Source: a virus. From it: 64,000 bases of DNA. Both the position numbers and the translations under genes were made by a program. The notes beneath the pieces are model-generated. The model worked only from the letters and a program-made list of their open reading frames with translations. It was not told the DNA's origin and made no database searches. This document shows positions 5,234-63,945 of the stretch, piece by piece (within the stretch, counting starts at the first letter, position 1; every line of letters begins with the position of its first letter). The DNA lies in the IMG/VR virus record IMGVR_UViG_3300040781_000091, positions 10,179 to 74,178 of that record; one strand, written 5' to 3'.

Positions 5234-5475
5234 CTCGAAATAAACATAAACAAATCAGTAAGAGAGGACTGATCAGACATATTCGATCCTTGTAAAATTA
5301 GTACCATAGCGTCTGCTTCGTTGTAACATTCTATCCAACTATACTCGGAGTGTATCAATGATATCGGTATACAGAATCGATAATACACGGGTCTTAACCA
5401 AATCCATCTTTTAGAAGTAAGGCGTACAGGCCACCATGCAAATACTTTACATATGTCGCTGTACTCTGTTTGCAT
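5230..5475 (-). CDS. Hypothetical protein, paralog of 4913-5233
   Basis: FAWWPVRLTSKRWIWLRPVYYR. Confidence 0.7.
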   Translation of the reverse strand: MQTEYSDICKVFAWWPVRLTSKRWIWLRPVYYRFCIPISLIHSEYSWIECYNEADAMVLILQGSNMSDQSSLTDLFMFISR

Positions 5476-6257
5476 TAACTCATCATCTTCTCAAGTGCAA
5501 TTGCTACGCTTGCAGCAAAGTCTTTATCGAAATTTTCTTTGGTCTCGTCTAACGAATCCATGTTCGCTAATGCCCACTGCCAGTAGTCGAGCGGAACCTC
5601 TTCGAGTCGTTTTCCTTTGTGCTTACCCATCGGCATAGTTTCGAACACAATAGGCTCGTCTAACCATTCTTGCAATTGTTGTAAATACGGCTCATTTTCT
5701 TCGAGTACTTCTTGTTGAATTAATACATCAACAAAATGTGATAATAGATATGCAGTTACCAGAGCATCGCTGTCTGCTCTGTGTGCATCGATTTTATGAT
5801 CTGCAGGGTCGAGTATGTTAAACCGGTATCTAAGATAGGGCAAGTTAAACGCAGACACAGTTGGGTCATTTCCGTATAACTTCTTAGCAATACGCATTGT
5901 GCATACCCAGGTTTTGTGCGATACATCGTACCTCTCTAACACTTTCATATCGTAGAAACTGTTATGTGCTACAATTGCTGCATCTTGTCCCAGAGCGCCT
6001 AACAACATTTTTAGATCATCGACACCTTCGTCGAAATTGCGGCAACCAGCGACCATTTTATTAGTGATATTGGTTATCGCCGAAACTTCCGGAGTAATCG
6101 GCTCGTTCGGTTTGTACAACTCAACAAAGCGTTCCCAATTACCATCGTTATACATCACATAGCCGAGTTCGGTAACTTCTGCTTCGTTATAGTCCTTACT
6201 TGTGGTTTCTGTATCAAGAATGAGACAGTTTGTTAGAAATTCTGTTTTACGGTCCAT
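5475..6257 (-). CDS. DEDDh 3'-5' exonuclease (ExoX / DnaQ-like)
   Basis: LDTETT, VAHNSFYD, AHRADSDA; C-terminal MPMGKHKG domain as in ExoX. Confidence 0.9.
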   Translation of the reverse strand: MDRKTEFLTNCLILDTETTSKDYNEAEVTELGYVMYNDGNWERFVELYKPNEPITPEVSAITNITNKMVAGCRNFDEGVDDLKMLLGALGQDAAIVAHNSFYDMKVLERYDVSHKTWVCTMRIAKKLYGNDPTVSAFNLPYLRYRFNILDPADHKIDAHRADSDALVTAYLLSHFVDVLIQQEVLEENEPYLQQLQEWLDEPIVFETMPMGKHKGKRLEEVPLDYWQWALANMDSLDETKENFDKDFAASVAIALEKMMS

Positions 6258-6286
6258 ACGCACCCCGTTATTATGTTATTACAGTA

Positions 6287-37825: not shown

Positions 37826-38320
37826 TTATATCTGAGACACCATGACAAATTCCATGTTCTGTGGGTTGCCAGACGGACTACCGGGTACGGTTGTAATTCT
37901 CACTCCACTGTCTATAATTACACCATCAATTTCCTTTACTAGTAACCCAACTGGATCTCTAGTCTTAAAATCTTCCCACGTATCAGGTCGCTCACATGCA
38001 AACTTCCACACAAAGCCCTCGCCCACTAATGTTGGCGCACCTTCTGCTTCGAGGCTAGGCACTGCTACGGGATTGTTCATGATTGTAGGAACGGCTCTTA
38101 GGCCGATTGATTGGAAAAATATTTCAAAATTCTTCTGGCTCTGATCTTGTATTTCTTCTGTAACCTGAATATTTACTTGACGTATTTGCTCTTCTGGCTC
38201 AGGCGGATTTGGGTTAGGGTCAGTGTATGCGCCAGGGGACAGGGCGTATGCAATATAAAATTGCAAATCGCCTGTGAGGTTTTGCATCGCAGACGATGTT
38301 CCGTTTATTTGTGCAGTCAT
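37826..38320 (-). CDS. Virion protein, MTx(Q/K)(V/I)NG family
   Basis: MTAQING start; GGAG RBS; GATAAATA at 38342-38349. Confidence 0.65.
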   Translation of the reverse strand: MTAQINGTSSAMQNLTGDLQFYIAYALSPGAYTDPNPNPPEPEEQIRQVNIQVTEEIQDQSQKNFEIFFQSIGLRAVPTIMNNPVAVPSLEAEGAPTLVGEGFVWKFACERPDTWEDFKTRDPVGLLVKEIDGVIIDSGVRITTVPGSPSGNPQNMEFVMVSQI

Positions 38321-38368
38321 TGGCCATCTCCTATTTTATACTATTTATCACGGAGACAGCCTCTACCT

Positions 38369-39331: not shown

Positions 39332-39349
39332 GTGTTATCTACCTATTGT

Positions 39350-43254: not shown

Positions 43255-43262
43255 TTAGATTT

Positions 43263-46172: not shown

Positions 46173-46188
46173 TTTTTAATCTCCTAAT

Positions 46189-49065
46189 TTATGATCGCCA
46201 CTTTAGCACTAACTTTATTACGGTATCCTTTATCTTGCCAGGAATACCGTCAGCGGCTCTTAATCGAATTTTATCGCCTTGGTTGAAGTCGATATCTAGT
46301 GTTGTATTTATAAAGGAAGCATCGGTTCCGCCGGACAATAGTCCAATCGGGCCGAGGTCCGTATCGTTTATGTATAGGTGTATATTTTTAGTTGCAAGAC
46401 CAGTATCAACACAATATGCAGAAGCATATGTAAGTGTTCCGTCGAACTCCGATATGTATCCACTATTTGCATTGATTGTGTTACCTATTCTTATCCATTG
46501 TAAATTGTCTAGCCTGCTATCGGAAAATACAACGGGATTCTCCGAAACAGATAATGTCTTCGATCGTACTGTATCTAAAAATACGATCGTAGGTTGTCCG
46601 TTTATAACTTCGTTAAATGTTGGGGTACTAGTAATATAGCCAGCATCATTAACCAACTCGCTTACATTATCGCCTGGTTGCAAGGCAGTGTCTGCCAACG
46701 CACCCTGAGCAGTTGTTGCATAGAAGGCTGCATAGTCGCCTGCTTCCGCAGTGACATCACCAGTTCTTCCGAATACAGAACTAACATCACCGCCTGTTCC
46801 GGAGTTTAATGTATATACATTTGTATCTCTCCAGTCGACGTAATCGTTACCCTCGTCTGTGCTCTGAAAACTTACTTTTGGTGTATTGGTATATGTATCT
46901 CTAGTCTCAAGTATAACTGTTGCAATTGGTGTAAATTCTTGAAAAGGCAATCCGAACAGTGAGTTGATTTCTGTTTGGGCGTTTTCTTGTGCGGCAGTTT
47001 TACTATTATAGTTTTCAATTCCCTGTATCGCTACGACAGGATTTAGTACATCATTTGTTGCAAAATAATGAACTAATATAAACGAGTTGTTTGCTGCTTC
47101 TGTTAGCTGCCAAGTTAATCCGGTAAACTGGTTATACGGTGGGCGGCCATTTGCACCAATAAAAACAATACTGTCGCTAAAAATAAAAGGAAAACTGCTT
47201 GCTTCTTTTTTACTCCAATCGCCGAGAGCCCCTGTTCTAAACCATACAGGTATCTGAGCAACAGGAGACAGATTTTGCCTCAAATCGTAATTGTTAATAA
47301 CAGGTGCATTATTATCTAATATTAAATGCCCTAAATCTTCATCACGTATGTAACCATTCTCTACAATAAACTGTGCGTCTGCATTCGTAGGATTTGCAGG
47401 GTCGACACTCATATTCAATAGTGCTAGGCCGGAAATATACTGAGCACCGAATGACTCATGAAAATGTATATGCGTCGCGGAATCCATTGTGATTCCGTGT
47501 CTTTCGTCGCCTAACGTCACAAGCCCTGTTGTTCCGGCTGCTGGGGTATCGTTCCACGTTAAGTTGGCCACATACGAGTTATCTACTAGTATAGTAGTAA
47601 AATCTGGATTTAATGTTGCCTGCAATGTTACAGTGTCGTCTAAATAGAAGAAATATGTTCCTGTTGTATCGGGTATAGTAACTGACAGCGGGGCCGAGAC
47701 TGTATACTTAACTCCGTGAATATAGTAATCGAAGCTTGTCGCAGGAGCTAATGGCTCTACTGTAAATGTTCTGGTCGCAATTACAAAAGAAAATGTAGAA
47801 TCAGTTCTATTAAGGAATCCAGTTGGTTCGTCTGTATCTTCGGCAATTTCACTCGCAAGCGAAGTGACGAACTCAACTGCATCTCCTGCAGAGTTAACCT
47901 GAAGGACTTTTCCTTCCGCACCGGTATAACTAGCGGGTGTATCAGTTAGCCCGATGAATGTTGTAGAGCCTGTTGTCTTGTTTCCAGGGACAAACTCCGT
48001 ACCGTTCCATTCGATGATCTGCCCAGTCGTAATTCCTGTTATGTCTACATCTGATAAATCGCCAATCGACTGCGCTGATATCGTAGTCAGATACCCTGCA
48101 TCATTAACTAATTCGCTTACATTATCGCCGGGTGCTAGTGTGTTTGCTAGAAGCCAGTCGAGTGCATCTGAGACAGAGACACCAGTTACACCGCTTACGT
48201 TGGTTATTTGATCGGAATCATAATCACCCACTTCTGCAACAACAACTCCGGTCCTACCGAACACAGAATCAACTGCACCAGTTCCTCCGGTGCCGGGTTC
48301 CCATTCGCCACTGACCGAATTATACGTCAGTACATTGCCATTCGCTGCACCGGTTGTATCGACATCGATTAGATCGCCTAGTGCTAGATTAGCAAGAGTA
48401 TTCTCTATGTTAGTAATATCGGTGGTGTTAGTATCGACTAGTGCATCTAATTCGTCTATTGCTGCCTGAACATCTGTTGCCGATAAACCACTTATAGTGC
48501 TATCATAGTCAACTTGTATTGCATCGTAATCGCCTGCTTCTGCGACAACCACACCCACACGACCGAAAACACTAGTTACTGCTCCTGTACCGCCGCCGGG
48601 TACAAATATCAACCCGTCTTCGGTGGCATTTACAACAACCGTCTGACCAGCAAAGCCGGCATAAGACGCGGGAGTGTCAGTTAACTCTATAAACTGAGTA
48701 ACACCGGATCCGAGGGGTATCAAATTATAATAAACCTGTTCGACTGTGACGTTAGACACATCGACTTGATCGACACCGATTGTTCCAAGTGATCGTACTA
48801 AAATTTCAATTTCTGCTGCTGTCCAATCTGCTCGGTTTGTCTCTAATGCAAAGGACATACCAAGCGGGTTAGTAATCGGATTCATAATCGAAATTGTTGC
48901 CCGATCAGACAACAGTGTATAGATAATCTCAGCAGCCGATCCCTGAACAGGCTGACCATACATGTCAACTGCCCCAGAGAAGTCGGCCCCGATTATCCTA
49001 AAATGTTGTAACGAGCCTGTAAGTACTTGATCACAGAATCCCCCGCCGTTAACCCTAACTGGCAT
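46189..49065 (-). CDS. Long fibre protein with N-terminal VNG-family domain
   Basis: MPVRVNGG start; F..LTDTPASY.G and SVFGR.G.V.AE.GDY repeats. Confidence 0.8.
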   Translation of the reverse strand: MPVRVNGGGFCDQVLTGSLQHFRIIGADFSGAVDMYGQPVQGSAAEIIYTLLSDRATISIMNPITNPLGMSFALETNRADWTAAEIEILVRSLGTIGVDQVDVSNVTVEQVYYNLIPLGSGVTQFIELTDTPASYAGFAGQTVVVNATEDGLIFVPGGGTGAVTSVFGRVGVVVAEAGDYDAIQVDYDSTISGLSATDVQAAIDELDALVDTNTTDITNIENTLANLALGDLIDVDTTGAANGNVLTYNSVSGEWEPGTGGTGAVDSVFGRTGVVVAEVGDYDSDQITNVSGVTGVSVSDALDWLLANTLAPGDNVSELVNDAGYLTTISAQSIGDLSDVDITGITTGQIIEWNGTEFVPGNKTTGSTTFIGLTDTPASYTGAEGKVLQVNSAGDAVEFVTSLASEIAEDTDEPTGFLNRTDSTFSFVIATRTFTVEPLAPATSFDYYIHGVKYTVSAPLSVTIPDTTGTYFFYLDDTVTLQATLNPDFTTILVDNSYVANLTWNDTPAAGTTGLVTLGDERHGITMDSATHIHFHESFGAQYISGLALLNMSVDPANPTNADAQFIVENGYIRDEDLGHLILDNNAPVINNYDLRQNLSPVAQIPVWFRTGALGDWSKKEASSFPFIFSDSIVFIGANGRPPYNQFTGLTWQLTEAANNSFILVHYFATNDVLNPVVAIQGIENYNSKTAAQENAQTEINSLFGLPFQEFTPIATVILETRDTYTNTPKVSFQSTDEGNDYVDWRDTNVYTLNSGTGGDVSSVFGRTGDVTAEAGDYAAFYATTAQGALADTALQPGDNVSELVNDAGYITSTPTFNEVINGQPTIVFLDTVRSKTLSVSENPVVFSDSRLDNLQWIRIGNTINANSGYISEFDGTLTYASAYCVDTGLATKNIHLYINDTDLGPIGLLSGGTDASFINTTLDIDFNQGDKIRLRAADGIPGKIKDTVIKLVLKWRS

Positions 49066-49076
49066 AGGTTACTCCT

Positions 49077-49580
49077 TTAAGCTAATTCGAACGGTACTTG
49101 TGTAATTGCAACTGTAGTTGATACGTTAGCTGTGACCGGTGGTGCGCCTGCTGCGCCTGCTGATACTGGCACTGTTAGTGTTGCTCCAATAGCAGCAATA
49201 GCATCCTGCATAGCAACAACATCCACATCGCCGCCAGTTCCATCTGGTAGTACCGGTGTAATCCATCCAAATGCCGTTCCGTCTACGGAAAAGTCGATTT
49301 CGGTTTCTGCGCCTGGCGCACCAATTACACCAATATCTACAACGGTGCATTTCTCCATAATTGCTTCTAATGCCCAGTTAGCTAGAGAACCTGGTACTGG
49401 GCGATCCTCGCCAACAGTAAAATATGTTGTAGCAGGAGTTGCGCCGCCAGTTACAGGCGAGTCAAGTGTTACTGTACCATCACTAACAGTCCAAGCAAAG
49501 GCCCCTGTCATCTTAAAGTATAGTAATTTGCCAGCAAGCATTTGGTCTGTAATGATGCCACCGTTTACTTGTGTTGTCAT
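49077..49580 (-). CDS. Virion protein, MTx(Q/K)(V/I)NG family
   Basis: MTTQVNGG; GGAG RBS; GATAAATA at 49611-49618. Confidence 0.7.
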   Translation of the reverse strand: MTTQVNGGIITDQMLAGKLLYFKMTGAFAWTVSDGTVTLDSPVTGGATPATTYFTVGEDRPVPGSLANWALEAIMEKCTVVDIGVIGAPGAETEIDFSVDGTAFGWITPVLPDGTGGDVDVVAMQDAIAAIGATLTVPVSAGAAGAPPVTANVSTTVAITQVPFELA

Positions 49581-49646
49581 GTTAATTCTCCATAATGAAA
49601 ATGTTTCTTGTATTTATCAATAAAGTCAAACCTTTCGTGCAGTCAC

Positions 49647-49672
49647 AAAAAAGCAGCCCTAAGGCTGCTTTT
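49647..49672 (-). terminator. Intrinsic terminator
   Basis: AAAAGCAGCC-TTAG-GGCTGC-TTTTTT. Confidence 0.85.
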
Positions 49673-49689
49673 AAGCAAATATCAATTCC

Positions 49690-50196
49690 TTACGGTGTAG
49701 GTACTGGTGCTGGGGAATCAACCGGGACTACAACAAATCCGCCGCCAATTGAAATCTCAAGAGTTGATCCTGGGTAAGGATAGCCAGTTAGTATCTGAAC
49801 TATGAACTCGCTCAAGATAGGGTCGTCGCCGACTAAAGTAGGAGGATCGCCGATTACTGCGGCTGCTGTTCCTTTTACTGTTGTTCCTTCGATGAATTCT
49901 CCTGCTGCATACCCATAAGAAACGTAAAGGTTAGCGCCGGTTCCGTCTTGTACTGGTGATTCGTCGTTGTTCATGCCGATGATTGTTCCGCGCTGCTCTA
50001 ATACATTTATAACTTTCTGAGTGTAACCTTCTGTGGTCCACGGTGTTCCAAATGCGTTAAGAAACGGTGCGTCGGTTATATATGCACTAATAATCATCCA
50101 TGCTACTTTCTTCTCGTTCCAGAAGCCGGGACGTGGCGCTGTTGCTGCATTAGGTGCAACATTGACAGTGTTTGGGTTGTTTGGTAAGAATGCCAT
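49690..50196 (-). CDS. Virion protein, paralog of 50306-50707
   Basis: G.W.EK and QKVINVLEQRGTIIG shared with QQVMNILQTRGTVIG; GATAAATA at 50230-50237. Confidence 0.7.
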   Translation of the reverse strand: MAFLPNNPNTVNVAPNAATAPRPGFWNEKKVAWMIISAYITDAPFLNAFGTPWTTEGYTQKVINVLEQRGTIIGMNNDESPVQDGTGANLYVSYGYAAGEFIEGTTVKGTAAAVIGDPPTLVGDDPILSEFIVQILTGYPYPGSTLEISIGGGFVVVPVDSPAPVPTP

Positions 50197-50257
50197 ATTA
50201 AATTTCTCCATAAGAAAATATGTTTTGTATATTTATCCATTATCAGAAAATCTAGTC

Positions 50258-50285
50258 AAAAAAAAGCAGCCCGGAGGCTGCTTTT
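50258..50285 (-). terminator. Intrinsic terminator
   Basis: AAAAGCAGCC-TCCG-GGCTGC-TTTTTTTT. Confidence 0.85.
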
Positions 50286-50305
50286 CGAATCCTACTGCTA
50301 CTCTA

Positions 50306-50707
50306 TTAAGGAGTGAAAGGAGGATCAGGCTGTACGTGAGTAACAACTGCAGGAGTTGCGCCAGCGAAGCCTTCGAATACAGTGATTGTACAAGTGCTGC
50401 TAGTAGCTGCATCGATTGCAACTTGTAGCTCGTCGATAACAGTGTTAACGCCGCTTGGTACAGAACCGTCTGGTACAAGCTCTTCCCATGCGCCAGCAGA
50501 TGTGCCGAATAGGTAGTTTGCTTCTGTAGCAGAAACAACAGTGTAACCAATTACAGTACCACGAGTCTGTAGGATATTCATAACTTGCTGGTTTACACCG
50601 TTGATGGTGTCAGCTGTTAGATCAACAAGACCAGTGATGTTTAAGATTGATGTATCTTTCTCGTACCAAGAACCTTGGTAAAGCATTCCATTAACTTTTT
50701 GTGTCAT
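50306..50707 (-). CDS. Virion protein, MTx(Q/K)(V/I)NG family (probably an abundant decoration protein)
   Basis: MTQKVNG; AGGAG RBS, 5' hairpin, own promoter (50761-50768) and terminator. Confidence 0.7.
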   Translation of the reverse strand: MTQKVNGMLYQGSWYEKDTSILNITGLVDLTADTINGVNQQVMNILQTRGTVIGYTVVSATEANYLFGTSAGAWEELVPDGSVPSGVNTVIDELQVAIDAATSSTCTITVFEGFAGATPAVVTHVQPDPPFTP

Positions 50708-50780
50708 TTTATTTCTCCTAAAAATTCTTTTAGCAAATCCTTATGATCTGCTGTTAAGTTTATTTATCAAAATTATCGAA

Positions 50781-51071
50781 TTATTTGCTAATAGATAACT
50801 CTAAATCGTATATATGTCCGTCGTCTAACTCTACTTTAGCATAATACCCGTCTGCCTTAGCGTTTAGCTCGTGAAATTTAACGAAATGTGGGTTCTTTTT
50901 AAGTTCGTTATAAAAAGCAAAGCCCGAGGTGCCGTAAGACGATGGCTCCTGTTTTTCATCATAAATGCTAGCACGTTTGTTCATTTTGCCGGTACTATGA
51001 CCGATAGTAGCGATATTTCCGGCTCCGGTTGCACCCATACTAGCAGATTCTTTTATGTCTTTAATTCTCAT
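50781..51071 (-). CDS. Putative internal head protein
   Basis: MRIKDIKESASMGATGAGNIA. Confidence 0.65.
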   Translation of the reverse strand: MRIKDIKESASMGATGAGNIATIGHSTGKMNKRASIYDEKQEPSSYGTSGFAFYNELKKNPHFVKFHELNAKADGYYAKVELDDGHIYDLELSISK

Positions 51072-51334
51072 CGGAAAGGCGCCTCTTCATCTCTTGCCGG
51101 AGCAGATGGGTAATCACTCTGGAGTGTTGCAAGATCGTCGATTGTTGATCGAGTGCCATTTTTCTTTAATTGCTTTCCAGCTACTCTTAATAGATCAGCA
51201 AGTTCTTTATCGGATGGTTCGCCATCTAGGAAATCATTCACTATAGTTTTCACCATACTTCTAAGCGCACTCGGAGAGGACAACCCGATTGGGCTCTCGT
51301 CGAGACTTTCGTTTGTAATATCTTTAAACTTCAT
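51068..51334 (-). CDS. Putative internal head protein
   Basis: Likely start MKFKDITNE at 51334. Confidence 0.6.
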   Translation of the reverse strand: MKFKDITNESLDESPIGLSSPSALRSMVKTIVNDFLDGEPSDKELADLLRVAGKQLKKNGTRSTIDDLATLQSDYPSAPARDEEAPFR

Positions 51335-51629
51335 GCTTCTTCTCTCTCCAAATATCGCCAAGTACTTTTATGTCCGACTTGCGTATATTTAGCATTAATT
51401 GAAGTAGCTGATTCGTAGTTTCTTGATTTGTACGAGAACTAAGAGAGTACTTAGATTTTATCTGACTAATTAGTGATTGCATTTCCTTTTCTCGTGCAAC
51501 TGCTCCACGAAAAACACGATCGATAGTCTCGAAGTCGACGTCGGCATATCGTTTACGTAACTCGGAAGCGGCTGCCGATTCGTCGTAGTTTACACCGATA
51601 TCTCGTTTTGTCACTTCGTCGAGTTTCAT
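51324..51629 (-). CDS. Putative internal head protein
   Basis: MKLDEV leader. Confidence 0.6.
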   Translation of the reverse strand: MKLDEVTKRDIGVNYDESAAASELRKRYADVDFETIDRVFRGAVAREKEMQSLISQIKSKYSLSSRTNQETTNQLLQLMLNIRKSDIKVLGDIWREKKHEV

Positions 51630-52642
51630 CCTACAAACCTCTGCCCTTTAAGATAACCCTCGGGCTTAGTTTGCATAGTTGCATATCGTCCGCCAGCACT
51701 ATCCTTCTGATCGTCTTCTTGCAATTGGACATCACGTGGAACCTCTTCTTTAGAGATCACACCCGACTTTAGCGCCATTGAATAAATTCTTTCTACCATC
51801 GGATGCTTACGCATAACAGGAGCCTGATCTATATAAAAAGACAGGTTTTCAATCTCATCAGCAAGACGATCGGCAAATATAGCAACTTCTTCATATTGAT
51901 ATTCGGCTTCGTCGTGGTCACCGGCTTGTCCCCACATCTCACTTACCTTCTTAAGGTCTTTAATTATCCCTGCAAGATCGGGGTTCTCCATAGCGGTGTC
52001 TTCTTCTAGCTCCCCGGTGACTTCCCCTATAATGGTATGTGCGTCTTCGCTTCTAAGCCACGTTGCAACAGTTTTGTTATTAGCCGAATATATAGTATTG
52101 GGTTCACTCGGACGACCCGCTACACGCCATGGTAGGGGATATTCTTCTGTCGGGCCGAATGTGGCGGCGTCTACTCCGTCGCCTATGCCAGCGAAGCCTT
52201 TTGCTTTAAATTCTGCATCGCGCTCTCGGCTTCTCTGGTGTAGTGCTTTTAGGGTCGGAGACTCTCTGCCTTCTTTGTCGCCTTCCTCTTGCAAACTTTC
52301 GTTCTTCTTATTCTCTCGATTCCAGGCAGTCGAATACAATACACGCTCCCAGTCCTTTCCGTATCGAGCTTTGAACTCAGGCTTGCGCTTTTTAATCCAT
52401 TCTTCCTGACCGGGCGGAGCAACCTCATTAACGGCCCACGAACTATATGTTCCAGGGCGAACCGCATGGCGGCGCTCTTGTTCTTTAGCAATATCCAATG
52501 CAGACTTTCCACGGAAGCGAGGATCTGCTGCTAATTCCTCAAATCTTTTACGCAGCTCTTCGTTAGACATTGCAGCGAGCTTTTGCTTTTGTTTAGCAAC
52601 TACCGACGGCATGCCTTCGTTTAATATATCATTAATTTTCAT
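51626..52642 (-). CDS. Putative multi-segment internal head protein
   Basis: MKINDILNEG; internal VNEVAPPG..YSTAW, LQEE, LEED and LQED sites. Confidence 0.65.
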   Translation of the reverse strand: MKINDILNEGMPSVVAKQKQKLAAMSNEELRKRFEELAADPRFRGKSALDIAKEQERRHAVRPGTYSSWAVNEVAPPGQEEWIKKRKPEFKARYGKDWERVLYSTAWNRENKKNESLQEEGDKEGRESPTLKALHQRSRERDAEFKAKGFAGIGDGVDAATFGPTEEYPLPWRVAGRPSEPNTIYSANNKTVATWLRSEDAHTIIGEVTGELEEDTAMENPDLAGIIKDLKKVSEMWGQAGDHDEAEYQYEEVAIFADRLADEIENLSFYIDQAPVMRKHPMVERIYSMALKSGVISKEEVPRDVQLQEDDQKDSAGGRYATMQTKPEGYLKGQRFVG

Positions 52643-52651
52643 AGTGTGTCC

Positions 52652-53050
52652 TTATACCGTTAGTTTAGGATTGCTGGTCATGAAATTCGGTTTACGCATC
52701 ACTGTCTTAGCAATCAGTTCAAACATTTTTCTACGTGGATTCCAGTTTAATACAAAGGGCGAATTAAGCTTACTTCCCACGTCATTTATAACAGCCTGTG
52801 CCTTATCTCCCATGTCTGCTATTTGTTTTCCGTACTTTTGTTCGGCCTTTCCGAACATTTTAAATAATTCGCCTGTAGTAATCTGCTTTCTGTTACGCTG
52901 ATCGTTTACGCGGTCAAGAAAGTGGCGAGTAAATTCTAGGTCGATGTCGTCCCTATTATACAAAGCATCTAGATATTTTTCAAGTGAATCTAGATCTTGC
53001 TGAGTAACAGGTTCGTCGGGCGAAGTTGATGTAAATTCGTATAATCTCAT
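52652..53050 (-). CDS. Putative RelE/BECR-fold RNase-like protein with leader
   Basis: MRLYEF leader; FTRHFLDR helix and terminal IAKTVMRK strand. Confidence 0.45.
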   Translation of the reverse strand: MRLYEFTSTSPDEPVTQQDLDSLEKYLDALYNRDDIDLEFTRHFLDRVNDQRNRKQITTGELFKMFGKAEQKYGKQIADMGDKAQAVINDVGSKLNSPFVLNWNPRRKMFELIAKTVMRKPNFMTSNPKLTV

Positions 53051-54775: not shown

Positions 54776-56242
54776 CTATATTTCGCTTAACTGGCGTCCT
54801 ACCAATAATTTTAACAAGTCCTCAGTAGACTTGGCACGTTTAATTCCTAACTTAAATGCTTCTAACTGTTTATATACAGATGCAAACACCTGCAATGTTC
54901 TCTTGTCTACTTCCTCGTCATAGTGAAACTCTCGCGTCTTGCCGCCTAAGTCTACTGTAACTTTTTTATCGCCCACCTCGTCTTTATACTTGTCTAACTC
55001 CGAGGACAACTTCTTCTCTTGTTGATCGATATAATTTCTCCAATAGCTTTTTACACTCGAGAAATCCACATCACTTGTCAATTCCTGTACGATCTCTTCT
55101 GGGGTATTTCCGAACTTCTTTAAATACCGTTTTGCCTGCATAGTGCCTAGTTCGGGGTGCCCGAGTGAAGTTGCAAGTCCTACCAGTAGTCTACCGAGGA
55201 AGCTTTCTAACGTATGCACTGATTTAGGACGTTCCGCTAGCTCAGACCGTACCTGCCATATAAAATTCTTCACCGTTAGGAACATGTCTTTGTCTACTAC
55301 CTTGAACATTGCTCCAGTTTTTTTGTGTCTAAAAACGACGCCCTCGATCCAGCCGCCGTCTTCTATCTCTGGCCCAAACTCACTTTTTATCTGGCGCACT
55401 AAATCGTTTAATAGTAATTCCTTTATTCTTAACTTGTACCCAAGGCCGTCTTCGCTGTCGCCTTGTACATGCTTGTGTACTTCTTCGCGCTTTTTCTTTA
55501 CCCGCTCTTTAATTTCGCTCCAGTCCTTGGGGTCAATTCCTTCTGGACGCTTATTTAAAGGCACACCCAGAATATCTACATTAGAAAATTTCCATATGCC
55601 GGATGGCTTCTTTAAGTACTCGTCTAACTCGTCTAACTCTTTGTTGATTCTTTCACGGACTACGTCATCGATGAGTTCGTTGCCTTCCCAACTCGGCGTT
55701 TTAGCAAAAGTCCACTTGTGTTCTTCTTCGGCCATGTGTATTGTTTTGCCATCTATTGTGTACGGCGAATCAACCGCCACGTACACAGACTCGCCGTCTA
55801 ATGTATCTCTTAAGGAAGTTAAATCGACCTCACCTTCTATTACTCGGAGGAAGATGATTTCGTTTTCTTCGCTAGAATACGGTACAGCATTTGGCAGTTT
55901 GCCAAACAGTACTTCGGCTTCTACTCTGTCGCCGCGAGCTAAGCCAGCATCAATTAGTTGTGGCAACACTTTTTCTAGCGCGGCATGGGCTGACCGCTGA
56001 AACGTAGTTGAGAAGTTAATAGGATGATCACTGACGTCATGCATACGCTTGCCGCCTTTGTCTTCGCGTGAGGTGTAGAAGCCGCCTTCGTCTATTCCGA
56101 ACTGTATATTGCTCCCGTCTATTTTTTCGGATACTTCGTATTCTTCGAAATTACGCAAAGCATCGATAAACTGGTCGATTTTTAAATCTTCGACGTGGGT
56201 AATACCCTCGAACATCGGCCGGCGGAGTTGTTCAAATCTCAT
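54776..56242 (-). CDS. ATP-dependent ligase superfamily (RNA ligase-like) protein with leader
   Basis: SEKIDGSN (motif I), EAEVL (III), IEGVVF (IV), FKVVD (V); likely start MRFEQL..MFEG. Confidence 0.7.
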   Translation of the reverse strand: MRFEQLRRPMFEGITHVEDLKIDQFIDALRNFEEYEVSEKIDGSNIQFGIDEGGFYTSREDKGGKRMHDVSDHPINFSTTFQRSAHAALEKVLPQLIDAGLARGDRVEAEVLFGKLPNAVPYSSEENEIIFLRVIEGEVDLTSLRDTLDGESVYVAVDSPYTIDGKTIHMAEEEHKWTFAKTPSWEGNELIDDVVRERINKELDELDEYLKKPSGIWKFSNVDILGVPLNKRPEGIDPKDWSEIKERVKKKREEVHKHVQGDSEDGLGYKLRIKELLLNDLVRQIKSEFGPEIEDGGWIEGVVFRHKKTGAMFKVVDKDMFLTVKNFIWQVRSELAERPKSVHTLESFLGRLLVGLATSLGHPELGTMQAKRYLKKFGNTPEEIVQELTSDVDFSSVKSYWRNYIDQQEKKLSSELDKYKDEVGDKKVTVDLGGKTREFHYDEEVDKRTLQVFASVYKQLEAFKLGIKRAKSTEDLLKLLVGRQLSEI

Positions 56243-56861
56243 TATCGCTAACACCTTTCTTGGGGTAGTCGCCCTCGCCTAATCCTTCGTTGCTTTGTGC
56301 TGGGATTAAATCGGCTAAGCGAGTAAATAGATATTTAATTGCTTTGTTTGTGATAGGTGCTTCTGTTAGCTCTACTGACTCAGTGACACCGTCTAAATAT
56401 TGTAATACCGGTTCTGCCATATTGGCAGCTATAATACTGTTTGCTAGGTTTGTAATTTTCTGATCGTCCGATCCTGTTACACCTGCATTCTTCAGGGCTC
56501 TTTTTATTTCGCCATCGGAAATGTCGAACTCACGAAGCATCCTCACGATTTCTCTGAGGTCGGTCGGTGAATGAAGATCTTCCCACGCATCATATAAATC
56601 TTCATATGTGATCTCGTTGCGTTCTCTAAACTTGCCCGTAGCCCTTTTAGCATTGTTGTACTTCTTTGATACAAATTGTTTAGCATAGTTTATAGGCCCT
56701 TCGGTTAATCCAGCAAGCTCTTTTAGCCGCTCAATTTCTTCATTTTTTTTGTTTACTGAAAACTTATCTATAGTTTTAGTGAGCGAGCTTTTACCAGAGC
56801 CACGCAATTTAACGATTTCGTCGAATATTGCTCTGATTGTATTTTTACTAAGAGTTGGCAC
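56232..56861 (-). CDS. Putative head protein
   Basis: EIERLKELAGLTEG; VTES and LTEA sites. Confidence 0.6.
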   Translation of the reverse strand: MPTLSKNTIRAIFDEIVKLRGSGKSSLTKTIDKFSVNKKNEEIERLKELAGLTEGPINYAKQFVSKKYNNAKRATGKFRERNEITYEDLYDAWEDLHSPTDLREIVRMLREFDISDGEIKRALKNAGVTGSDDQKITNLANSIIAANMAEPVLQYLDGVTESVELTEAPITNKAIKYLFTRLADLIPAQSNEGLGEGDYPKKGVSDNEI

Positions 56862-57485: not shown

Positions 57486-58907
57486 TCACTCCATTTTTTT
57501 AATTAAATCACGGAGGGCTGTGGCCTTCGTGGCTGTTTCGGTGGGCGAGTCCGGCATTTTATTAGGAGCAGTAGGTATTCCCCCACTTGTCGTATTTGTT
57601 ATTACATTTTTCTTCTTCAATGTGTCCATAATATTCTTAGTCTGGGCAACTACTGCGCTATCGTCGTCCTCGTCTAGATCTGTAATTCTTAGTGTTTTTC
57701 CATTAAACGCTAAATCTACTTTAGACCCTACGCCAGAACTAGAACGTGTCTTCATAAACTGTATCTGATATCGGCCTGCTTCTTTCATTGCTGCTGTTGT
57801 AAAGATACCAATTACGTTGTCTGCTGTGTTTACCTTCGAAATACCGCCTGCGATGTGACTGGCATCGAATTCGATCTCTTCGAACGATCCTCTGTTTAGC
57901 TGTGATGCAGTAGCAAACAACACTTGTAAATCTGCTGCTAAGTTTCTAAGTTCCTCAGATACGTATTTGTCTTTAATAAACTGATCGCTCGGACTAACTT
58001 TAACAGATACAGGCCAGCACAAATCCAAATAGTCCACTAATAATGCATCTACCTTAACGCCAGTTTGAACTTCGTACTCTTTAAGATACGCCCGGATATC
58101 GTTTACTGTTGTTCCGCTCGGCATATACTTTAATCGAATGGAACCCTTATTTTTCTTCTGTGCTGATTTAACCCGCATCGCAACATCTTCCATGTTACGC
58201 AACACATCACGTGTCTCGCATCCTGCTGTCATTGCGTCTAATCTCATGGCCGATAAGTTCTCAGACAGCTCAAGTGTAATGTACACCACGTTTAGGCCGT
58301 TTTCTGCCCAGTTTACGGCTAAATTTTGAAGGAATAAGCTCTTTCCTGCACCAGGTTGTCCTGCAAAAATAGTAATCTCGCCGCGGTTAAATCCGCCGTA
58401 TAATTTACGATCAACAGATGCCCAGCCTGTAGATAATAATCCGCTGTTATCTCGTATGGCCTGAAGTCTTGCAAGCGGATCTGCGTAGTAATCTGTTCCT
58501 AAGTCTTTGACCAGTCCAATCTGCACTGCTGCCTTAATGCTAGACTCGACTTCCCCATATCTGCTTTCTTCTAGTAGATCGGGCGAGCTCAAAATTGCAA
58601 TCTCTAATGCTTTATGCCGGCAAAACTTTTCGTATTGCTCTAGAAACCAATCTTTATGATGATCGGTTATATTTTCCTCTAACTCAACTGTCTTTCCAGC
58701 AACTGCTTTAATCTGTGCCAGCGTAGGCATAGAGTTGTAATCGTTTGTATGCGATCCTAAAAATACAATTGTCTTTTTGTTGACTTCGCTGTTAAAAAAG
58801 TCAGGAGATGTGATACCTTTACATCTAATAAATAATTCAGGATCAGTTACCATGTAACTTATAAAGAGGTCTTCAACTTCCTTGGTATACGCCTGTATGT
58901 CGTTCAT
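57486..58907 (-). CDS. Replicative DnaB-family helicase (T4 gp41-like)
   Basis: GQPGAGKS, ITLELSE, LVDYLD, TASQLNR, KTR. Confidence 0.93.
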   Translation of the reverse strand: MNDIQAYTKEVEDLFISYMVTDPELFIRCKGITSPDFFNSEVNKKTIVFLGSHTNDYNSMPTLAQIKAVAGKTVELEENITDHHKDWFLEQYEKFCRHKALEIAILSSPDLLEESRYGEVESSIKAAVQIGLVKDLGTDYYADPLARLQAIRDNSGLLSTGWASVDRKLYGGFNRGEITIFAGQPGAGKSLFLQNLAVNWAENGLNVVYITLELSENLSAMRLDAMTAGCETRDVLRNMEDVAMRVKSAQKKNKGSIRLKYMPSGTTVNDIRAYLKEYEVQTGVKVDALLVDYLDLCWPVSVKVSPSDQFIKDKYVSEELRNLAADLQVLFATASQLNRGSFEEIEFDASHIAGGISKVNTADNVIGIFTTAAMKEAGRYQIQFMKTRSSSGVGSKVDLAFNGKTLRITDLDEDDDSAVVAQTKNIMDTLKKKNVITNTTSGGIPTAPNKMPDSPTETATKATALRDLIKKME

Positions 58908-59925
58908 TCTTATCTAATTTCCATTTTAATTCTATCGTCGTAGGATTTCTCTCCGACGAATCTATTATTGATTTTATCGTTAGAATTCTTCCGAATTTTT
59001 CTACGGCTTTAGCTGGGTCCTTTATGCCAATGCCCCAATCCGGAAATGCAACACGCCAACCATTTTTAATCGCGATGTTGACTAATGTACCGCCATCTTT
59101 GTCCTTGTCTGGGCACACTATAATTATCTTGCCTAAACTATTAAGCATCTGTATCTGGTCTTCGTTCATTGTACTGTGACACGGGCTAACGCCGTCTGTA
59201 AAATATGCGTCGAATACGCCTTCGCACAGTATAACGTATTTGCGATCGAAATCTGCCTGTTTACTAAGGTTGTATATATAATTATCAGGCATCTGATTTA
59301 TATATTTGGGAAGTTTCTTATTTGGCGGTTCGCCGAAGTATCTCCCTGTGTAACCTACAATTTCATTTTTATAATAAAACGGCAAAGTAAGTCGCTTATG
59401 AAACATGAATTCTTTGTCTGGAGTCCAAAACAATTCGTCCAACTTACGAAAGCGTCGATTAACTGCATATTCAGCTACACGCATGAAGTTAGGATCAGTG
59501 CAACCATCTGTTAGCCAATCTAATATACTACGAGAATTAGGAGGGAGAGACTTCGGTGTCCAATTCTTAGTAATTACGCCTCGGAGCTTTATCTCTGAAT
59601 CTGCTTCAAGTGAATTCTGCTCTTTGAACAGTTCGAAGTTTAGCTTCTGTATATCATATTGCGAAATACCTAGCTCGGACATAACACGCTGGAACTTTGC
59701 ACTGAGTGAATGACCGGGAGTAAACACTGCATCGTATCCGCAATTGAAACAATTAACTGCTATCTTTCCATCTGGACTAAAAAGCACGCCGAAACGTCCC
59801 TTAGTATCAGCGGACTCGCCTTTCAAATGGCACAGCATACAATTACGCCGCAGCCATCCTTTAGGTGTCTTTTTTAAGGGACCTAAGTGCTCTAGGAGAA
59901 TTTCTTTAACTAAGTCTTGAACCAT
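58873..59925 (-). CDS. DNA primase (T4 gp61-like)
   Basis: CMLC..CFNC Zn finger, GYTGR, KY, TOPRIM CEGVFDA and PDKD..G, KDP. Confidence 0.9.
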   Translation of the reverse strand: MVQDLVKEILLEHLGPLKKTPKGWLRRNCMLCHLKGESADTKGRFGVLFSPDGKIAVNCFNCGYDAVFTPGHSLSAKFQRVMSELGISQYDIQKLNFELFKEQNSLEADSEIKLRGVITKNWTPKSLPPNSRSILDWLTDGCTDPNFMRVAEYAVNRRFRKLDELFWTPDKEFMFHKRLTLPFYYKNEIVGYTGRYFGEPPNKKLPKYINQMPDNYIYNLSKQADFDRKYVILCEGVFDAYFTDGVSPCHSTMNEDQIQMLNSLGKIIIVCPDKDKDGGTLVNIAIKNGWRVAFPDWGIGIKDPAKAVEKFGRILTIKSIIDSSERNPTTIELKWKLDKNERHTGVYQGS

Positions 59926-59947: not shown

Positions 59948-60826
59948 TTAGGTTCTCACAAGTATTTTGTTTATCCTACCAGGGTTCTCTACTTCGGTTG
60001 ACGGAGTATATACAAACTTCAAAAACATAACATTAGCACTAAACGTATATGCTTCTGTTCCGAAGAAATCAATAAATTCTAAATAATCAGAGCCGGTCAC
60101 TACTTGTATTTTAAACCAGTGTCCGCTATTTGGATCTTCGTACGGATTTATATCTAAAGTACCTAACACTTCTAATGTACCTGTGAACTTGTCTGCTTCG
60201 TTTACATGTATAGAAAAGCTATGGGTCGACCAGGTGTGGTTCTGTACTCTGGCGCCGGGAATGGACGAGCTATAATATGTGTCAACAAGCGGCCCTGAGC
60301 CTTGCCATAGCAAACGAGTCATTGTCCACTCGTCAATAGTGTATGTCGGTAGAGGAACACGTTCGGCCTGACCAGTTAATTCGATAGTAGCCACGATGTT
60401 GCTATCGAAGTCAGTGTAAAACGGTGTGGTGGTTGCATATTTACCCACTGTACTCGGTGCAAATTGCTGTTGCCCTACGATTACAATTTCGTACAATCCT
60501 TCTGCTAGATTAGCAATGTCACCTTCGTCTAGATCCAAAAACAGCATGCCTTTAGCAGTGTTAGTTCTGCAAGGCCGTTGCAATACCAACTCTCTGTTCT
60601 CGGTATTGAAAATTCGTGCCATCATGTCGTAGTTGCAAATGTTAACTGGTTGTCGGTCGGGGTTAAATACTCTAAATTTTAGAATGTTATCAACCCCCTT
60701 ATGGACTTTTATATTTCGTTTGTTCATGGGCGCATTATCCGTGTCTAAGCAGGTCGTTTGATCGTCATTTAACAACAATCGTCTGACATCGTCGTATAAG
60801 TATAGGTCGTTGAGTGATGTAAACAT
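59948..60826 (-). CDS. Late structural protein (BppU-like N-terminal domain)
   Basis: KGVDN.LKF..NPDRQPVN, GLY; GATAAATA at 60832-60839. Confidence 0.55.
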   Translation of the reverse strand: MFTSLNDLYLYDDVRRLLLNDDQTTCLDTDNAPMNKRNIKVHKGVDNILKFRVFNPDRQPVNICNYDMMARIFNTENRELVLQRPCRTNTAKGMLFLDLDEGDIANLAEGLYEIVIVGQQQFAPSTVGKYATTTPFYTDFDSNIVATIELTGQAERVPLPTYTIDEWTMTRLLWQGSGPLVDTYYSSSIPGARVQNHTWSTHSFSIHVNEADKFTGTLEVLGTLDINPYEDPNSGHWFKIQVVTGSDYLEFIDFFGTEAYTFSANVMFLKFVYTPSTEVENPGRINKILVRT

Positions 60827-60893: not shown

Positions 60894-61262
60894 ATGGAAT
60901 TAGACAACATATCACAAAACTTTCCCTATCTTAGCTGTGTCCTCTATCAGGGACGCGAATACGTTTGTATCATTCAAAATCACGACGATAAGATAATGAG
61001 CTTTTACGACTTCCAGTCGTTACGCACACCAGAGGAAAAACGATACTTCTTAGAGTGCGGCGACACGTGGTGGTGGGAAAGTAATAGACTGTTACCCATA
61101 CACATATTCTTAAACGGAAAGATGGTACCCTTTCGATATTGCCTAAAAACTGTTGCAATGAAAGATATATCTGTCGTATTCGGTCCGACTACCAGCCTAA
61201 ACAATCTAATGAAGAAGCGCATCAAGAAGCGTCAAATTCAACTAGTTAAGAAAGTTGACTAG
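60894..61262 (+). CDS. Conserved-looking hypothetical late protein
   Basis: FPYLS, IIQN, WWWESNR.LPI..FL. Confidence 0.7.
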   Translation: MELDNISQNFPYLSCVLYQGREYVCIIQNHDDKIMSFYDFQSLRTPEEKRYFLECGDTWWWESNRLLPIHIFLNGKMVPFRYCLKTVAMKDISVVFGPTTSLNNLMKKRIKKRQIQLVKKVD

Positions 61263-61833
61263 CTTGCTCTACCAATAAGTTCATCTGTACAACAATTGCC
61301 ATCGAATATGCAATCCCGTGTGCCCGTTTGAAGTGGTAACTGCCGTCTGCGGGTTTTTCCCAAACTTCTTTTTCTATTACGTCCCACGTACTATCGGCCA
61401 AGTGTTTTTTAGACGGGCGCATAACTGCAAGTAACATTGCTAATTGATCTACGCTCCTAGGATGCATCTTTTTCACTAACCAAAAATAATCTCCGATATG
61501 AAATAACTGCTGTACAATTTCTTCTATGTCTAGCAAAGTCCAATCAGGCTCTTTCATTAGTTCTAATAAATGTTCTTCGCTTCTAACACCTTCGTAAATA
61601 CTTACGTTCAGACAATCTACTTTAAAATAGCCTAAATCCTGTGCTTTCTTATAGTCTATGTTTGCTTGGTTAGTAAAAGGATTGCGAGGGATGTCTTGAA
61701 AATACACACCCGTGTTATGCTTCTCGAAGGTGCCTTTACGATCTATACTTGCAACAACATGCCTGAGACCACTAAGTGCTTTGTCTCGATCGGAAAAATC
61801 AATATCTACATCAAAATTTATCAGGGTGGACAT
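61246..61833 (-). CDS. Minimal DNA polymerase III alpha (DnaE)-like catalytic-domain protein
   Basis: DVDIDF, KHNTGVY, GYFKVDCL, LA..RP, FKRAH..AY. Confidence 0.75.
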   Translation of the reverse strand: MSTLINFDVDIDFSDRDKALSGLRHVVASIDRKGTFEKHNTGVYFQDIPRNPFTNQANIDYKKAQDLGYFKVDCLNVSIYEGVRSEEHLLELMKEPDWTLLDIEEIVQQLFHIGDYFWLVKKMHPRSVDQLAMLLAVMRPSKKHLADSTWDVIEKEVWEKPADGSYHFKRAHGIAYSMAIVVQMNLLVEQASQLS

Positions 61834-62284
61834 ATTTCCTCACACAAAATTTATCATATACCCGTCTTTCCGAATACTCCATGCAGTCTAACATTTCGCT
61901 CGGATCATAGATCACGTCAGCGGTGTGTTTTCCGTTTATAACTGATTGGTAAATTACATCATACCCAACTAGATTATGAAATATCTCAATCACACTCGGG
62001 CCGCCTATGACCCAAAAATTATTCCCAGTTGCTTCGATCAGCTTACTTGGATCGTCATATACATAATACCCGGGGCCGGGTGGTAGTGTCGAGCTAAGAA
62101 CTACATGAGTTCGATTCGGTAACAAGCTGGGTAAGCTCTCAAATGTATTTTTACCCATTACGATTGTGCCGCCGTTTGTCACATGTTTAAAGTGCTTAAA
62201 GTCCTCTGAAATATGTGCCCAAGGTAATTCGCTGTTTAACCCGAAGCCGTTTGCTTCGTCTATTGCAAATATTGCACCTATCAT
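61811..62284 (-). CDS. folA: Dihydrofolate reductase
   Basis: LPW..EDFKHFK, MGKNTFESL, LPNR.HVVLS, VIGG. Confidence 0.95.
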   Translation of the reverse strand: MIGAIFAIDEANGFGLNSELPWAHISEDFKHFKHVTNGGTIVMGKNTFESLPSLLPNRTHVVLSSTLPPGPGYYVYDDPSKLIEATGNNFWVIGGPSVIEIFHNLVGYDVIYQSVINGKHTADVIYDPSEMLDCMEYSERRVYDKFCVRKYVHPDKF

Positions 62285-63000
62285 AGTCCTGCTGCCTTTA
62301 GTGTCTCTTTGATAAACTTCACATCGTCGCTGTGTTTTGTAATTCGCTTGGTCCAGACACTAGGATCGATAATAGTTTTAATCATCTTGTATTGTTCTTC
62401 GTTAAATTGATCCAACAAGTTACCGGCACTCTCGGACAAATATAATACCCAGGGACTAATGCGTCCTGTTTTTATTAAATAAGCGGCTTCTGTAGTAGGA
62501 ATAACGGAAAAGAACTGATCGTATGTGCAGTTGTTTTCTTCTGCCCATTCGTTCATAAAAACAATGGTTCTTTCTAATCCTTTCTCGGGCGGCTCTTTAG
62601 CAATAAGATCCTCGAGATATGTCTCATAAACATAATCCTTCTGCCAGTCGTTAAGCTTCACTCCGTTGCGTATTACAAAGTCCACAAAGTCATTTGTATT
62701 AATCGGATTCAATTGTACTAAGTGTCTACCAAACTTGACAAACGATACATAATATTTACTATCAATAAAGTCGTCTAGGGTCTTTTCCTTTTTCGAATTA
62801 GTAGTCAACTCGAAGAATCTCTGAAACACACGAAAACCCAACCGTGACGCAATATTATCTTTATCTGCAAATCGCTTCTTCTTAGGGCACATGTGACTCG
62901 ACAATGTGCTTTCTTGAGAAAAACCGCGCTTACAGTATTTGCACACAAACGGTTTATTTGAAGATGTCTTTGATTTCTTTATCGCTGTAACCTGCATCAC
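62281..63000 (-). CDS. Zn-finger protein in the replication cluster
   Basis: FVCKYCKRGF....L..H.C; GRISPW. Confidence 0.65.
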   Translation of the reverse strand: MMQVTAIKKSKTSSNKPFVCKYCKRGFSQESTLSSHMCPKKKRFADKDNIASRLGFRVFQRFFELTTNSKKEKTLDDFIDSKYYVSFVKFGRHLVQLNPINTNDFVDFVIRNGVKLNDWQKDYVYETYLEDLIAKEPPEKGLERTIVFMNEWAEENNCTYDQFFSVIPTTEAAYLIKTGRISPWVLYLSESAGNLLDQFNEEQYKMIKTIIDPSVWTKRITKHSDDVKFIKETLKAAGL

Positions 63001-63442
63001 TGAATATTTGTTTTATTTCGTCTTGCGTATGTATTGAATCGAGTAGTTCTAGCTCATCTGCTTTTAGATTAGGAAAAAGTTTACTAAGTTCTGACTGAAC
63101 TGGATTCTTCCCCTTCTTCTTAGGTGGCTTCAGATACGTATGGAACTGATTGCTTCCGGCACCGCACAGTGCCATTAGTTTCCATTGTAGCTCAGGGTGT
63201 TTATTAAGAGCTGTGAATTCGTGATTCACTAAATCGTTTACCATCAGCAAATAGTGTTCTGCATACATGCCATTACATGAACTAGCATAACGCATAGCAA
63301 GCCAAGGAGAGAATGCCTTCTTAAGCTCGTCATCCAGTCTATTATAAAAGTCTTTGTCGCCTCTGTCAAGCGCAGAGAGCATCTCCTTCAATGGTATCTG
63401 TGCTTTCTTCGGCTTCGCCGGTGCTTTGGGTTTAGTAGCCAT
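62954..63442 (-). CDS. Putative clamp-loader small subunit (T4 gp62-like)
   Basis: FSPWLAMRY.S, N..HPELQW, position among replication genes; start MATKPK at 63442. Confidence 0.5.
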   Translation of the reverse strand: MATKPKAPAKPKKAQIPLKEMLSALDRGDKDFYNRLDDELKKAFSPWLAMRYASSCNGMYAEHYLLMVNDLVNHEFTALNKHPELQWKLMALCGAGSNQFHTYLKPPKKKGKNPVQSELSKLFPNLKADELELLDSIHTQDEIKQIFSDAGYSDKEIKDIFK

Positions 63443-63945
63443 TACTGAAACAACGACGCCACGTCTAATGTATCTGGTATTTTGTTTTTCTCTTTCACAA
63501 ATAATGCACACTTGGGCTCAGAGCCCTCCTCGAGAGGAACAACTAATAACGTACCGTGTCTCAGTTTCGGAAAGAACCACTTTACTTCTGCATATACATT
63601 TACAATATTTACTTCTGCAGGATGCGTTACCATATGCTTTAGTGGATTGTAAACTACTGTATGAAATCCGCGATCATTTAATGCTGTTAAAGGAATAATT
63701 TCGATATCTGTAAAATCTTCGTCACACGCAACTAACGACCAGTCGAGCGGCATCTGCACTTTGTATTCTCCGATTTGCAATACAATTGCAGGGGCATAAA
63801 ATGACTCAAGAAAGATTAACGGAATAAAATAATAATCCATGTTGTTTTGGTCGGTTGTATCAAACACACAGTATCTAATGTCCTCAACCTCTTCCGGTAT
63901 ACGATTTAGATCGTATGGGCGGTTTTCGTTTGTCAAAATTAACAT
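63442..63945 (-). CDS. Conserved-looking hypothetical protein
   Basis: 167 aa, beta-rich; TAATG overlap with the next gene. Confidence 0.7.
   Translation of the reverse strand: MLILTNENRPYDLNRIPEEVEDIRYCVFDTTDQNNMDYYFIPLIFLESFYAPAIVLQIGEYKVQMPLDWSLVACDEDFTDIEIIPLTALNDRGFHTVVYNPLKHMVTHPAEVNIVNVYAEVKWFFPKLRHGTLLVVPLEEGSEPKCALFVKEKNKIPDTLDVASLFQ

Follow-up and report, generated by a model that had tools for sequence, protein, structure and literature searches.

The jumbo phages of group 2.2, which comprise phages of the RaK2, PA5oct and Atu_ph07 type, encode a minimal DNA polymerase III (Pol III) alpha subunit that is split into two units (Iyer, Anantharaman, Krishnan, Burroughs and Aravind 2021, Viruses 13:63, PMC7824862). 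The N-terminal unit is described in that study as NTP-binding and the C-terminal unit as binding Mg2+ and the DNA template, both occur beside a family B polymerase, and the minimal enzyme has been proposed as a model of the ancestral one. In the paper on phage Atu_ph07, the gene product gp316 is labelled 'Pol III alpha'. Here, we describe a protein of 195 amino acids (aa) encoded at 61246-61833, on the minus strand, of a 64,000-nucleotide stretch of viral DNA (the window), which covers positions 10,179 to 74,178 of the IMG/VR virus record IMGVR_UViG_3300040781_000091. The record is 74,178 bases long and is estimated to be about 21% complete. From sequence comparison and a modelled fold, we consider it highly probable that this open reading frame (ORF) encodes the C-terminal unit (C-half) of a two-piece minimal Pol III alpha of the group 2.2 type; this confidence covers the identity of the protein, and its function is graded lower. 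Since proteins of this kind have already been published (Iyer et al. 2021, PMC7824862), the ORF is a further member and not a new kind. The polymerase piece and the sites read within and before it are listed below in window coordinates.

61246..61833, minus strand: polymerase piece, 195 aa, ATG start, intact ORF; its predicted role, from phrog_11778, the AlphaFold2 (AF2) model and VIA, is that of the Mg2+- and template-binding unit (C-half) of a split minimal Pol III alpha.
61837..61841, minus strand: GAGGA ribosome-binding site, 3 nucleotides (nt) 5' of the ATG, within the 3' end of the dihydrofolate reductase (DHFR) gene; read from the sequence.
61810..61812, minus strand: D8 codon, equivalent to E. 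coli DnaE D401 by alignment; invariant in homologues.
61804-61806, minus strand: D10 codon, equivalent to D403 by MAFFT alignment to E. coli DnaE.
61798-61800, minus strand: D12 codon, equivalent to D405 by MAFFT alignment to E. coli DnaE.
61615..61617, minus strand: D73 codon, equivalent to E. coli DnaE D555 by alignment; the third catalytic aspartate, within GYFKVDCL; invariant.

An earlier note on this DNA, made from the sequence alone, had described the ORF as intact and overlapping both of its neighbours, and the overlaps amount to 23 nt with the DHFR gene and 17 nt with a convergent gene for a 122-aa protein. The note had also named five motifs that follow one another in DnaE order. All five are found, in the same order as in E. 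coli DnaE (from NC_000913), in the MAFFT alignment that underlies our residue map: DVDIDF, in which D8, D10 and D12 correspond to E. coli D401, D403 and D405; KHNTGV, in which H39 and G42 correspond to H511 and G514; GYFKVDCL, with K71 and D73 for K553 and D555; LAVMRP, with R139 and P140 for R639 and P640; and FKRAH..AY, with H172 and Y176 for H760 and Y764. Profile, fold and conservation agree that the three catalytic aspartates are retained, as had been proposed, with D8, D10 and D73 standing for D401, D403 and D555. Only 7 residues of the protein precede the first of these aspartates.

The affiliation of the protein with Pol III alpha is indicated by several comparisons. The PHROG family phrog_11778 ('DNA polymerase', 197 positions) matches it at full length (E 7.7e-68; residues 7-190 on profile positions 7-194), and tblastn finds identities of 60% in PA5oct, the nearest isolate, 51% in Atu_ph07 and 45% in RaK2. 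A single-sequence phmmer search of the ORF against the PDB gave chance matches only, for example to Cas1 and S1, and a profile built from 39 homologues matched Pol III alpha chains only, in four colinear stretches. The AF2 model of the protein, computed as a monomer, has a mean predicted local distance difference test score (pLDDT) of 91.9 and a predicted template modelling score (pTM) of 0.71, and the top 16 Foldseek matches of this model in the PDB are all DnaE or PolC, with probabilities of up to 1.00. Superposition of an AlphaFold model on DnaE had been set beforehand as a test, and a palm match was found: VIA-align gave a Z of 10.2 and a root-mean-square deviation (rmsd) of 3.8 A over 193 aligned residues with T. 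aquaticus Pol III alpha (3e0d_A), and a Z of 8.8 with E. coli 2hnh, where model residues 1-193 superpose on 395-781 of the chain; the highest-scoring unrelated chain had a Z of 3.6. The modelled fold is that of the second palm half and the fingers of Pol III alpha. Over about 190 residues (Z 8.8-10.2), the protein resembles DnaE (2hnh, 3e0d and M. tuberculosis 5lew) and PolC (3f2b), with which it shares the palm strands bearing the equivalents of D401, D403, D555 and K553 and the finger motifs RP(GP) and KSH..Y.

In contrast to DnaE, which exceeds 1000 aa, the 195-aa protein is without the PHP domain, the first palm half with its GS motif, and the clamp-binding and OB domains. The thumb (about residues 451-503 of E. 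coli DnaE) and a finger insert (about 641-751) have no counterpart in it, and the alignment with E. coli DnaE spans residues 401-782 only, with nothing that corresponds to the chain past about residue 782, so that no clamp-binding, OB or tau-binding region is present; the E. coli domain limits are reportedly those set by Lamers and co-workers in 2006. The description of the protein as 'palm-only' in the earlier note needs correction: the palm half with the GS motif is absent, and part of the fingers is included. Because the GS motif, the other domains and any match to PF07733 (DNA_pol3_alpha; none on the whole contig at E<=10) are absent, the ORF cannot be classified as a complete C-family polymerase.

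The missing palm half, E. coli residues 319-393, is encoded by a separate gene in every complete relative examined. The gp316 of Atu_ph07, which we located by counting from the RFC gene, is a protein of 177 aa whose C-terminus reads ...GVGRGSCVSSYILYIIGVHKVNSIKYDLDFSEFLE up to the stop codon, and its counterpart in Pseudomonas phage Ettore is gene 0087, of 169 aa. Both of these N-terminal units (N-halves) pass the curated cut-off of PF07733 (gp316, E 4.3e-10; 0087, E 5.2e-10; model positions about 20-98), and both carry GVGRGS and then end in EFL[KE]. Residues 95-169 of the Ettore N-half form an ungapped alignment with E. coli 319-393, including the G363/S364 motif, and all five N-halves from five phages stop at one position, after ...EFL[KRE], without an added domain. 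In DnaE coordinates the last residue of the N-half is about N393 and the first of the C-half about 394, so that nothing is lost or duplicated at the cut site. The ORF, which starts 7 residues before the DxD aspartates, is best read as the C-terminal unit. The suggestion of the earlier note that it might be one piece of a split polymerase is thus borne out by the complementary gene in relatives, and had already been reported (Iyer et al. 2021).

The two halves also occur together across these phages. Counted by genus, the phage records with each half are almost equal in number: 34/34 for Escherichia, 11/11 for Pseudomonas, 8/8 for Erwinia, 8/8 for Salmonella and 4/4 for Xanthomonas. Of the IMG/VR genomes, the only complete one tested encodes the two halves at a distance of 59 kb, and three longer IMG/VR fragments likewise contain either an N-half or a DnaE that is more complete. 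The halves are separated by 11 kb in Slickus01, by 31-43 kb in PBECO4, RaK2 and PA5oct, by 116 kb in SCTP-2 and by 182 kb in Atu_ph07. In Ettore and Atu_ph07, the N-half is located near an RFC-like clamp loader, at a distance of 2-3 genes, and the C-half within a primase-helicase block. An exhaustive profile search further recovered a protein of 375 aa, here called P0196, in which an N-half (…GVGRGSSSAS…KEFIK) is followed by a 10-residue linker and a C-half (DFDIDT…), with the same junction; this natural fusion supports the view that the two halves form one enzyme. No fused form was recovered by a word-based search for longer proteins, and for the genomic context of P0196 an IMG/VR scan found nothing and a metagenome scan gave ordinary DnaE only. 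P0196 and a phage DnaE-like protein of 563 aa are both PHP-less C-family cores, P0196 being N-half and C-half in one chain. The 563-aa protein, unlike the split form, is a single chain in which the thumb, the complete fingers and a C-terminal extension are retained. It is encoded unsplit in a relative that also has a mini C-half (L094:499-2190, minus strand, on the same 66-kb IMG/VR contig as locus L092), matches PF07733 over the whole model (E 2.5e-44) and lies directly 3' of genes for DnaB and an endonuclease III-like protein.

A DnaE encoded by two distant genes is also found in cyanobacteria, in which the split-intein DnaE (DnaE-n/DnaE-c) is divided in the fingers and healed by protein trans-splicing. 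The phage protein, by contrast, is divided within the palm, 7 residues ahead of its first catalytic aspartate, and has no intein fragments. Since neither phage half has room for an intein fragment, any association between them would have to be non-covalent. In the mechanism that we propose, the C-half would supply the strand with D8 and D10, the strand with D73 (beside K71) and shortened fingers (RP and KxxH..Y). The missing palm half, a helix-GS-helix element that would hold the incoming triphosphate, would come from the separate gene at another genomic site, which encodes a protein of about 170 aa. The two chains would dock without an intein or splicing and so rebuild one active site of the Pol-beta type, with the GS loop from the N-half and the three aspartates and finger residues from the C-half. 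We infer that the assembled chains would be a catalytically active, small nucleotidyl-transferase that operates beside the family B replicase, with primed DNA as the probable substrate in the context of the primase and helicase; a short-patch or primer-extending polymerase role would fit the place of the gene next to the primase.

The C-half is widely conserved. The word-based search returned 728 homologues of nearly equal length, and the exhaustive profile search 559 cluster representatives at E<=1e-3, 383 of them at E<=1e-10 (clusters at 50% identity), almost all of 185-215 aa; relatives are encoded on at least 565 IMG/VR contigs. In the alignment of 39 homologues, no variation is seen at D8, D10, D12, K71, D73, R139, P140, K169 and H172. 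The three aspartates together with K71, R139, P140, H172 and Y176 are unchanged in a set of 8 homologues, down to 31% identity, whose distant members include those of RaK2, RsoM2USA, RAS14 and Alishewanella phage Slickus01. A C-half homologue is present in 96 phage records, all of RaK2-like or 'group 2.2' large phages, among them PA5oct, Atu_ph07, SCTP-2, RaK2, GAP32, 121Q, PBECO4, Xoo-sp13 and RsoM2USA. Selection was judged by residue conservation, as the nearest DNA relatives have about 60-70% protein identity and synonymous sites would saturate. The present protein is like the C-terminal unit of group 2.2 (PMC7824862) in family, length, catalytic and finger motifs and PA5oct-like genomic setting. 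It differs from its relatives there in coming from an uncultured fragment without the N-terminal unit and the family B polymerase, and in having a DHFR gene inserted just upstream.

The genes around the polymerase piece are the following.

62281..63000, minus strand: 239-aa protein that combines a single C2H2 zinc finger, at the N-terminus, with an all-helical domain (AF2 pLDDT 91.4).
61811..62284, minus strand: dihydrofolate reductase (PF00186, E 1.8e-24), flanked by the zinc-finger gene and the polymerase piece.
60894..61262, plus strand: convergent gene for a 122-aa protein (phrog_11637, function unknown).
59948..60826, minus strand: 292-aa protein between the polymerase piece and the primase; weak PHROG matches only.
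58873..59925, minus strand: primase of the DnaG/T4 gp61 type (phrog_47, E 5.2e-29; 43% identity to the Ettore primase).
57486..58907, minus strand: DnaB-like replicative helicase (PF03796, E 4e-20; phrog_19, E 1.8e-67).

Much of this arrangement recurs in 80 related viral contigs (L014-L093), in which a gene for the 185-aa protein described below is found in 69, the C2H2 zinc-finger gene in 75 (within 3 kb upstream of the C-half), the convergent 122-aa gene in 77, the 292-aa gene in 42 and the primase gene in 64. The DHFR gene is absent from this place in Ettore, and none was seen beside the C-half in the 80 related loci. In the zinc-finger protein, C20, C23, H36 and C38 are invariant, and its profile matches only C2H2 fingers in the PDB; for its fold, Foldseek and a VIA-wide search gave nothing convincing (best Z 4.5) and the ESM Atlas nothing. 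The T4 helicase loader gp59 was considered as a relative of the zinc-finger protein and rejected as too weak a match (Z 4.0, rmsd 12.5 A over 165 residues). For the 122-aa protein, PDB profile and Atlas searches gave no lead. Its 3' overlap with the C-half is 17 nt here (61246-61262), in Ettore (15731-15747) and in RaK2 (115775-115791), and 26 nt in Alishewanella phage Slickus01; the conserved convergent overlap may be an antisense or termination arrangement.

Upstream of the zinc-finger gene, a 185-aa ORF occupies 62954-63511 on the minus strand, and its homologues are 143-191 aa long, most of them about 150. The true start probably lies downstream of the listed GTG; an ATG (MATKPK...) at about 63442 meets the stop of the preceding gene. 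Within the 5' part of this gene, at 63341-63369 on the minus strand, is a sigma-70 consensus promoter that agrees at 12/12 positions (TTGACA, 17 nt, TATAAT) and faces the zinc-finger, DHFR and polymerase-piece genes; by our own estimate about 0.002 chance matches would be expected. Overall, the scan for promoters and terminators found no excess over shuffled sequences.

The constancy of this neighbourhood admits a further reading, in which the C-half would be a dedicated part of a primase-linked module made up of the 185-aa protein, the zinc-finger protein, the C-half, the 122-aa and 292-aa proteins, primase and DnaB. The zinc-finger or helical neighbours would then stand in for the thumb and the DNA-binding domains that were lost, and the N-half, whose gene lies next to the clamp loader, would be recruited at one step only, for example at the hand-off of a fresh primer. 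Taken jointly, these proposals are speculative and we regard them as improbable; if true, they would amount to a regulated, modular assembly of a polymerase active site from two replisome sub-complexes.

Read in reverse, the contig is collinear, gene by gene, with the 13.4-55.3 kb region of Ettore, a PA5oct-like Wroclawvirus. The synteny stops at the MazG gene; the N-half of Ettore lies 3.4 kb beyond it, and the contig has 10.5 kb of unrelated genes instead. The earlier note had called for a search of the rest of the genome for a complementary DnaE piece and for a family B polymerase. None of the former was found on the contig, which is about 21% of the genome, and relatives do have the N-half; a family B polymerase (PF00136) is likewise absent from the 74-kb contig, and both Ettore and Atu_ph07 have one. 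A GS-motif regular expression and phmmer with E. coli DnaE and with its residues 230-400 gave nothing credible as an N-half. Two candidates were discarded: the string 'LRGSGKSS' in a 209-aa protein (56232-56861), considered as a GS motif and rejected for want of a DnaE alignment, and weak N-half matches at 7020-7581 of the contig on the minus strand, which are two adjacent small paralogous ORFs and not a broken N-half. The latter (G000:C1:7020-7581, outside the window) encode 85 and 105 aa with a common ...FTPK..RVEY... core.

A number of observations weigh against our interpretation of the ORF as half of a two-piece polymerase. The N-half was not found on the 74-kb contig by PF07733, by tblastn or by phmmer with two N-halves, and, because it is absent from the contig, its presence in this phage, off the fragment or placed elsewhere, is an assumption. 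Pfam gives no family for the 195-aa ORF at E<=0.1, and the E-values of the PDB profile matches are marginal (0.023-0.18); the homology of the C-half is drawn mainly from the fold match and the colinearity of the motifs. The fusion P0196 is a singleton cluster from a 2415-base ENA contig. The loss of the thumb, of most DNA-binding surfaces and of the clamp contact makes processive synthesis doubtful, and in the literature that we found there is no report of polymerase activity, a heterodimer or a structure for the split minimal Pol III alpha.

Other explanations of the ORF have to be weighed against these same data. It is very short beside DnaE and without a Pfam match, as a decaying DnaE remnant or a chance ORF might be. 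We reject this reading, to which we assign next to no probability, because hundreds of clusters keep a length of about 190-200 aa, the catalytic residues do not vary, and distant phages share both the gene order and the 17-nt convergent overlap; the model is also confident. Decay of the aspartate motifs, which the earlier note had named as a sign of a pseudogene, is not seen among the homologues or across at least 559 cluster representatives. A second explanation, preferred in that note, holds that the 195-aa protein acts alone as a palm-type nucleotidyl-transferase, perhaps one that extends the primers of the neighbouring primase. The retention of the three aspartates and the confident monomer fold are in its favour, as is the location of the C-half in the conserved primase-helicase module, away from the N-half, on a contig where no N-half is found. 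An element with the GS motif binds the triphosphate in every transferase of the Pol-beta fold, however, and the ORF has none; in complete relatives this half of the palm is a separate, co-occurring gene that ends at the complementary position, and P0196 joins the two naturally. The contig, moreover, holds just about 21% of the genome. We think a standalone enzyme very unlikely.

Another possibility is that the two chains do form a nucleotidyl-transferase, one that is no templated DNA polymerase and that would carry out untemplated addition, modification of DNA or RNA ends or synthesis of a nucleotide signal, or else that the C-half is a structural or regulatory subunit of the primase-helicase. 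In favour of such a role are the loss of the thumb, of roughly half the fingers and of the PHP, OB and clamp-binding domains, the family B replicase that relatives already have, the unsplit 563-aa DnaE found in one of them, and the close linkage of the C-half with a zinc-finger protein and other proteins of unknown function. The finger motifs (the equivalents of R639/P640 and H760/Y764) are nonetheless conserved as strongly as the aspartates, which argues that a DnaE-like handling of nucleotide and template has been kept, and nothing found here favours any given alternative chemistry. Taken together, the non-polymerase and the structural-subunit options are unlikely, and we retain the two-piece minimal Pol III alpha as the best explanation.

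The earlier note had looked to an ExoX-like gene for proofreading, which is probably the following one.

5475..6263, minus strand: DnaQ/epsilon-like 3'-5' exonuclease (PF00929, E 1.5e-16 and E 3.2e-18).

The product shares 44% identity with an Ettore protein labelled 'DNA polymerase exonuclease subunit'. A gene of the kind proposed thus exists, and the exonuclease is a possible candidate for a proofreading partner. A clamp-loader gene, which the earlier note had placed near the ORF, was not found on the contig, and the AAA+ genes that are present are FtsH-like and ClpX-like. Both are conserved in Ettore: an FtsH-like AAA+/M41 protease (PF01434, E 1.6e-57; 11725-13506, minus strand) and a ClpX-like unfoldase with a zinc finger (PF07724 and PF06689; 18039-19268, minus strand). 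The collinear map is broken by a block of about 15 kb without an Ettore counterpart (window positions about 38300-53000), which contains a 969-aa ORF (43263-46172, minus strand) with no Pfam family. In the relatives, the family B polymerase itself occupies two open frames, at 88825-92602 in Ettore (825 and 379 aa) and at 211877-214846 in Atu_ph07 (two annotated genes); the main replicase of phages of this type may also be encoded in pieces.

In the literature after Iyer et al. 2021, we found no functional study of the activity, the assembly or the role of the split enzyme beside the family B replicase. What this analysis adds is the conserved gene module, the 17-nt overlap kept from PA5oct-like phages to RaK2, and one 375-aa fusion. 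A C-family core of fewer than 400 residues that is cut through its active site is, to our knowledge, the smallest known relative of the bacterial replicase. The exact and conserved cut site, the conserved neighbours and the single-chain fusion could guide experiments on it, and P0196 shows a design for a single-chain version of the split enzyme.

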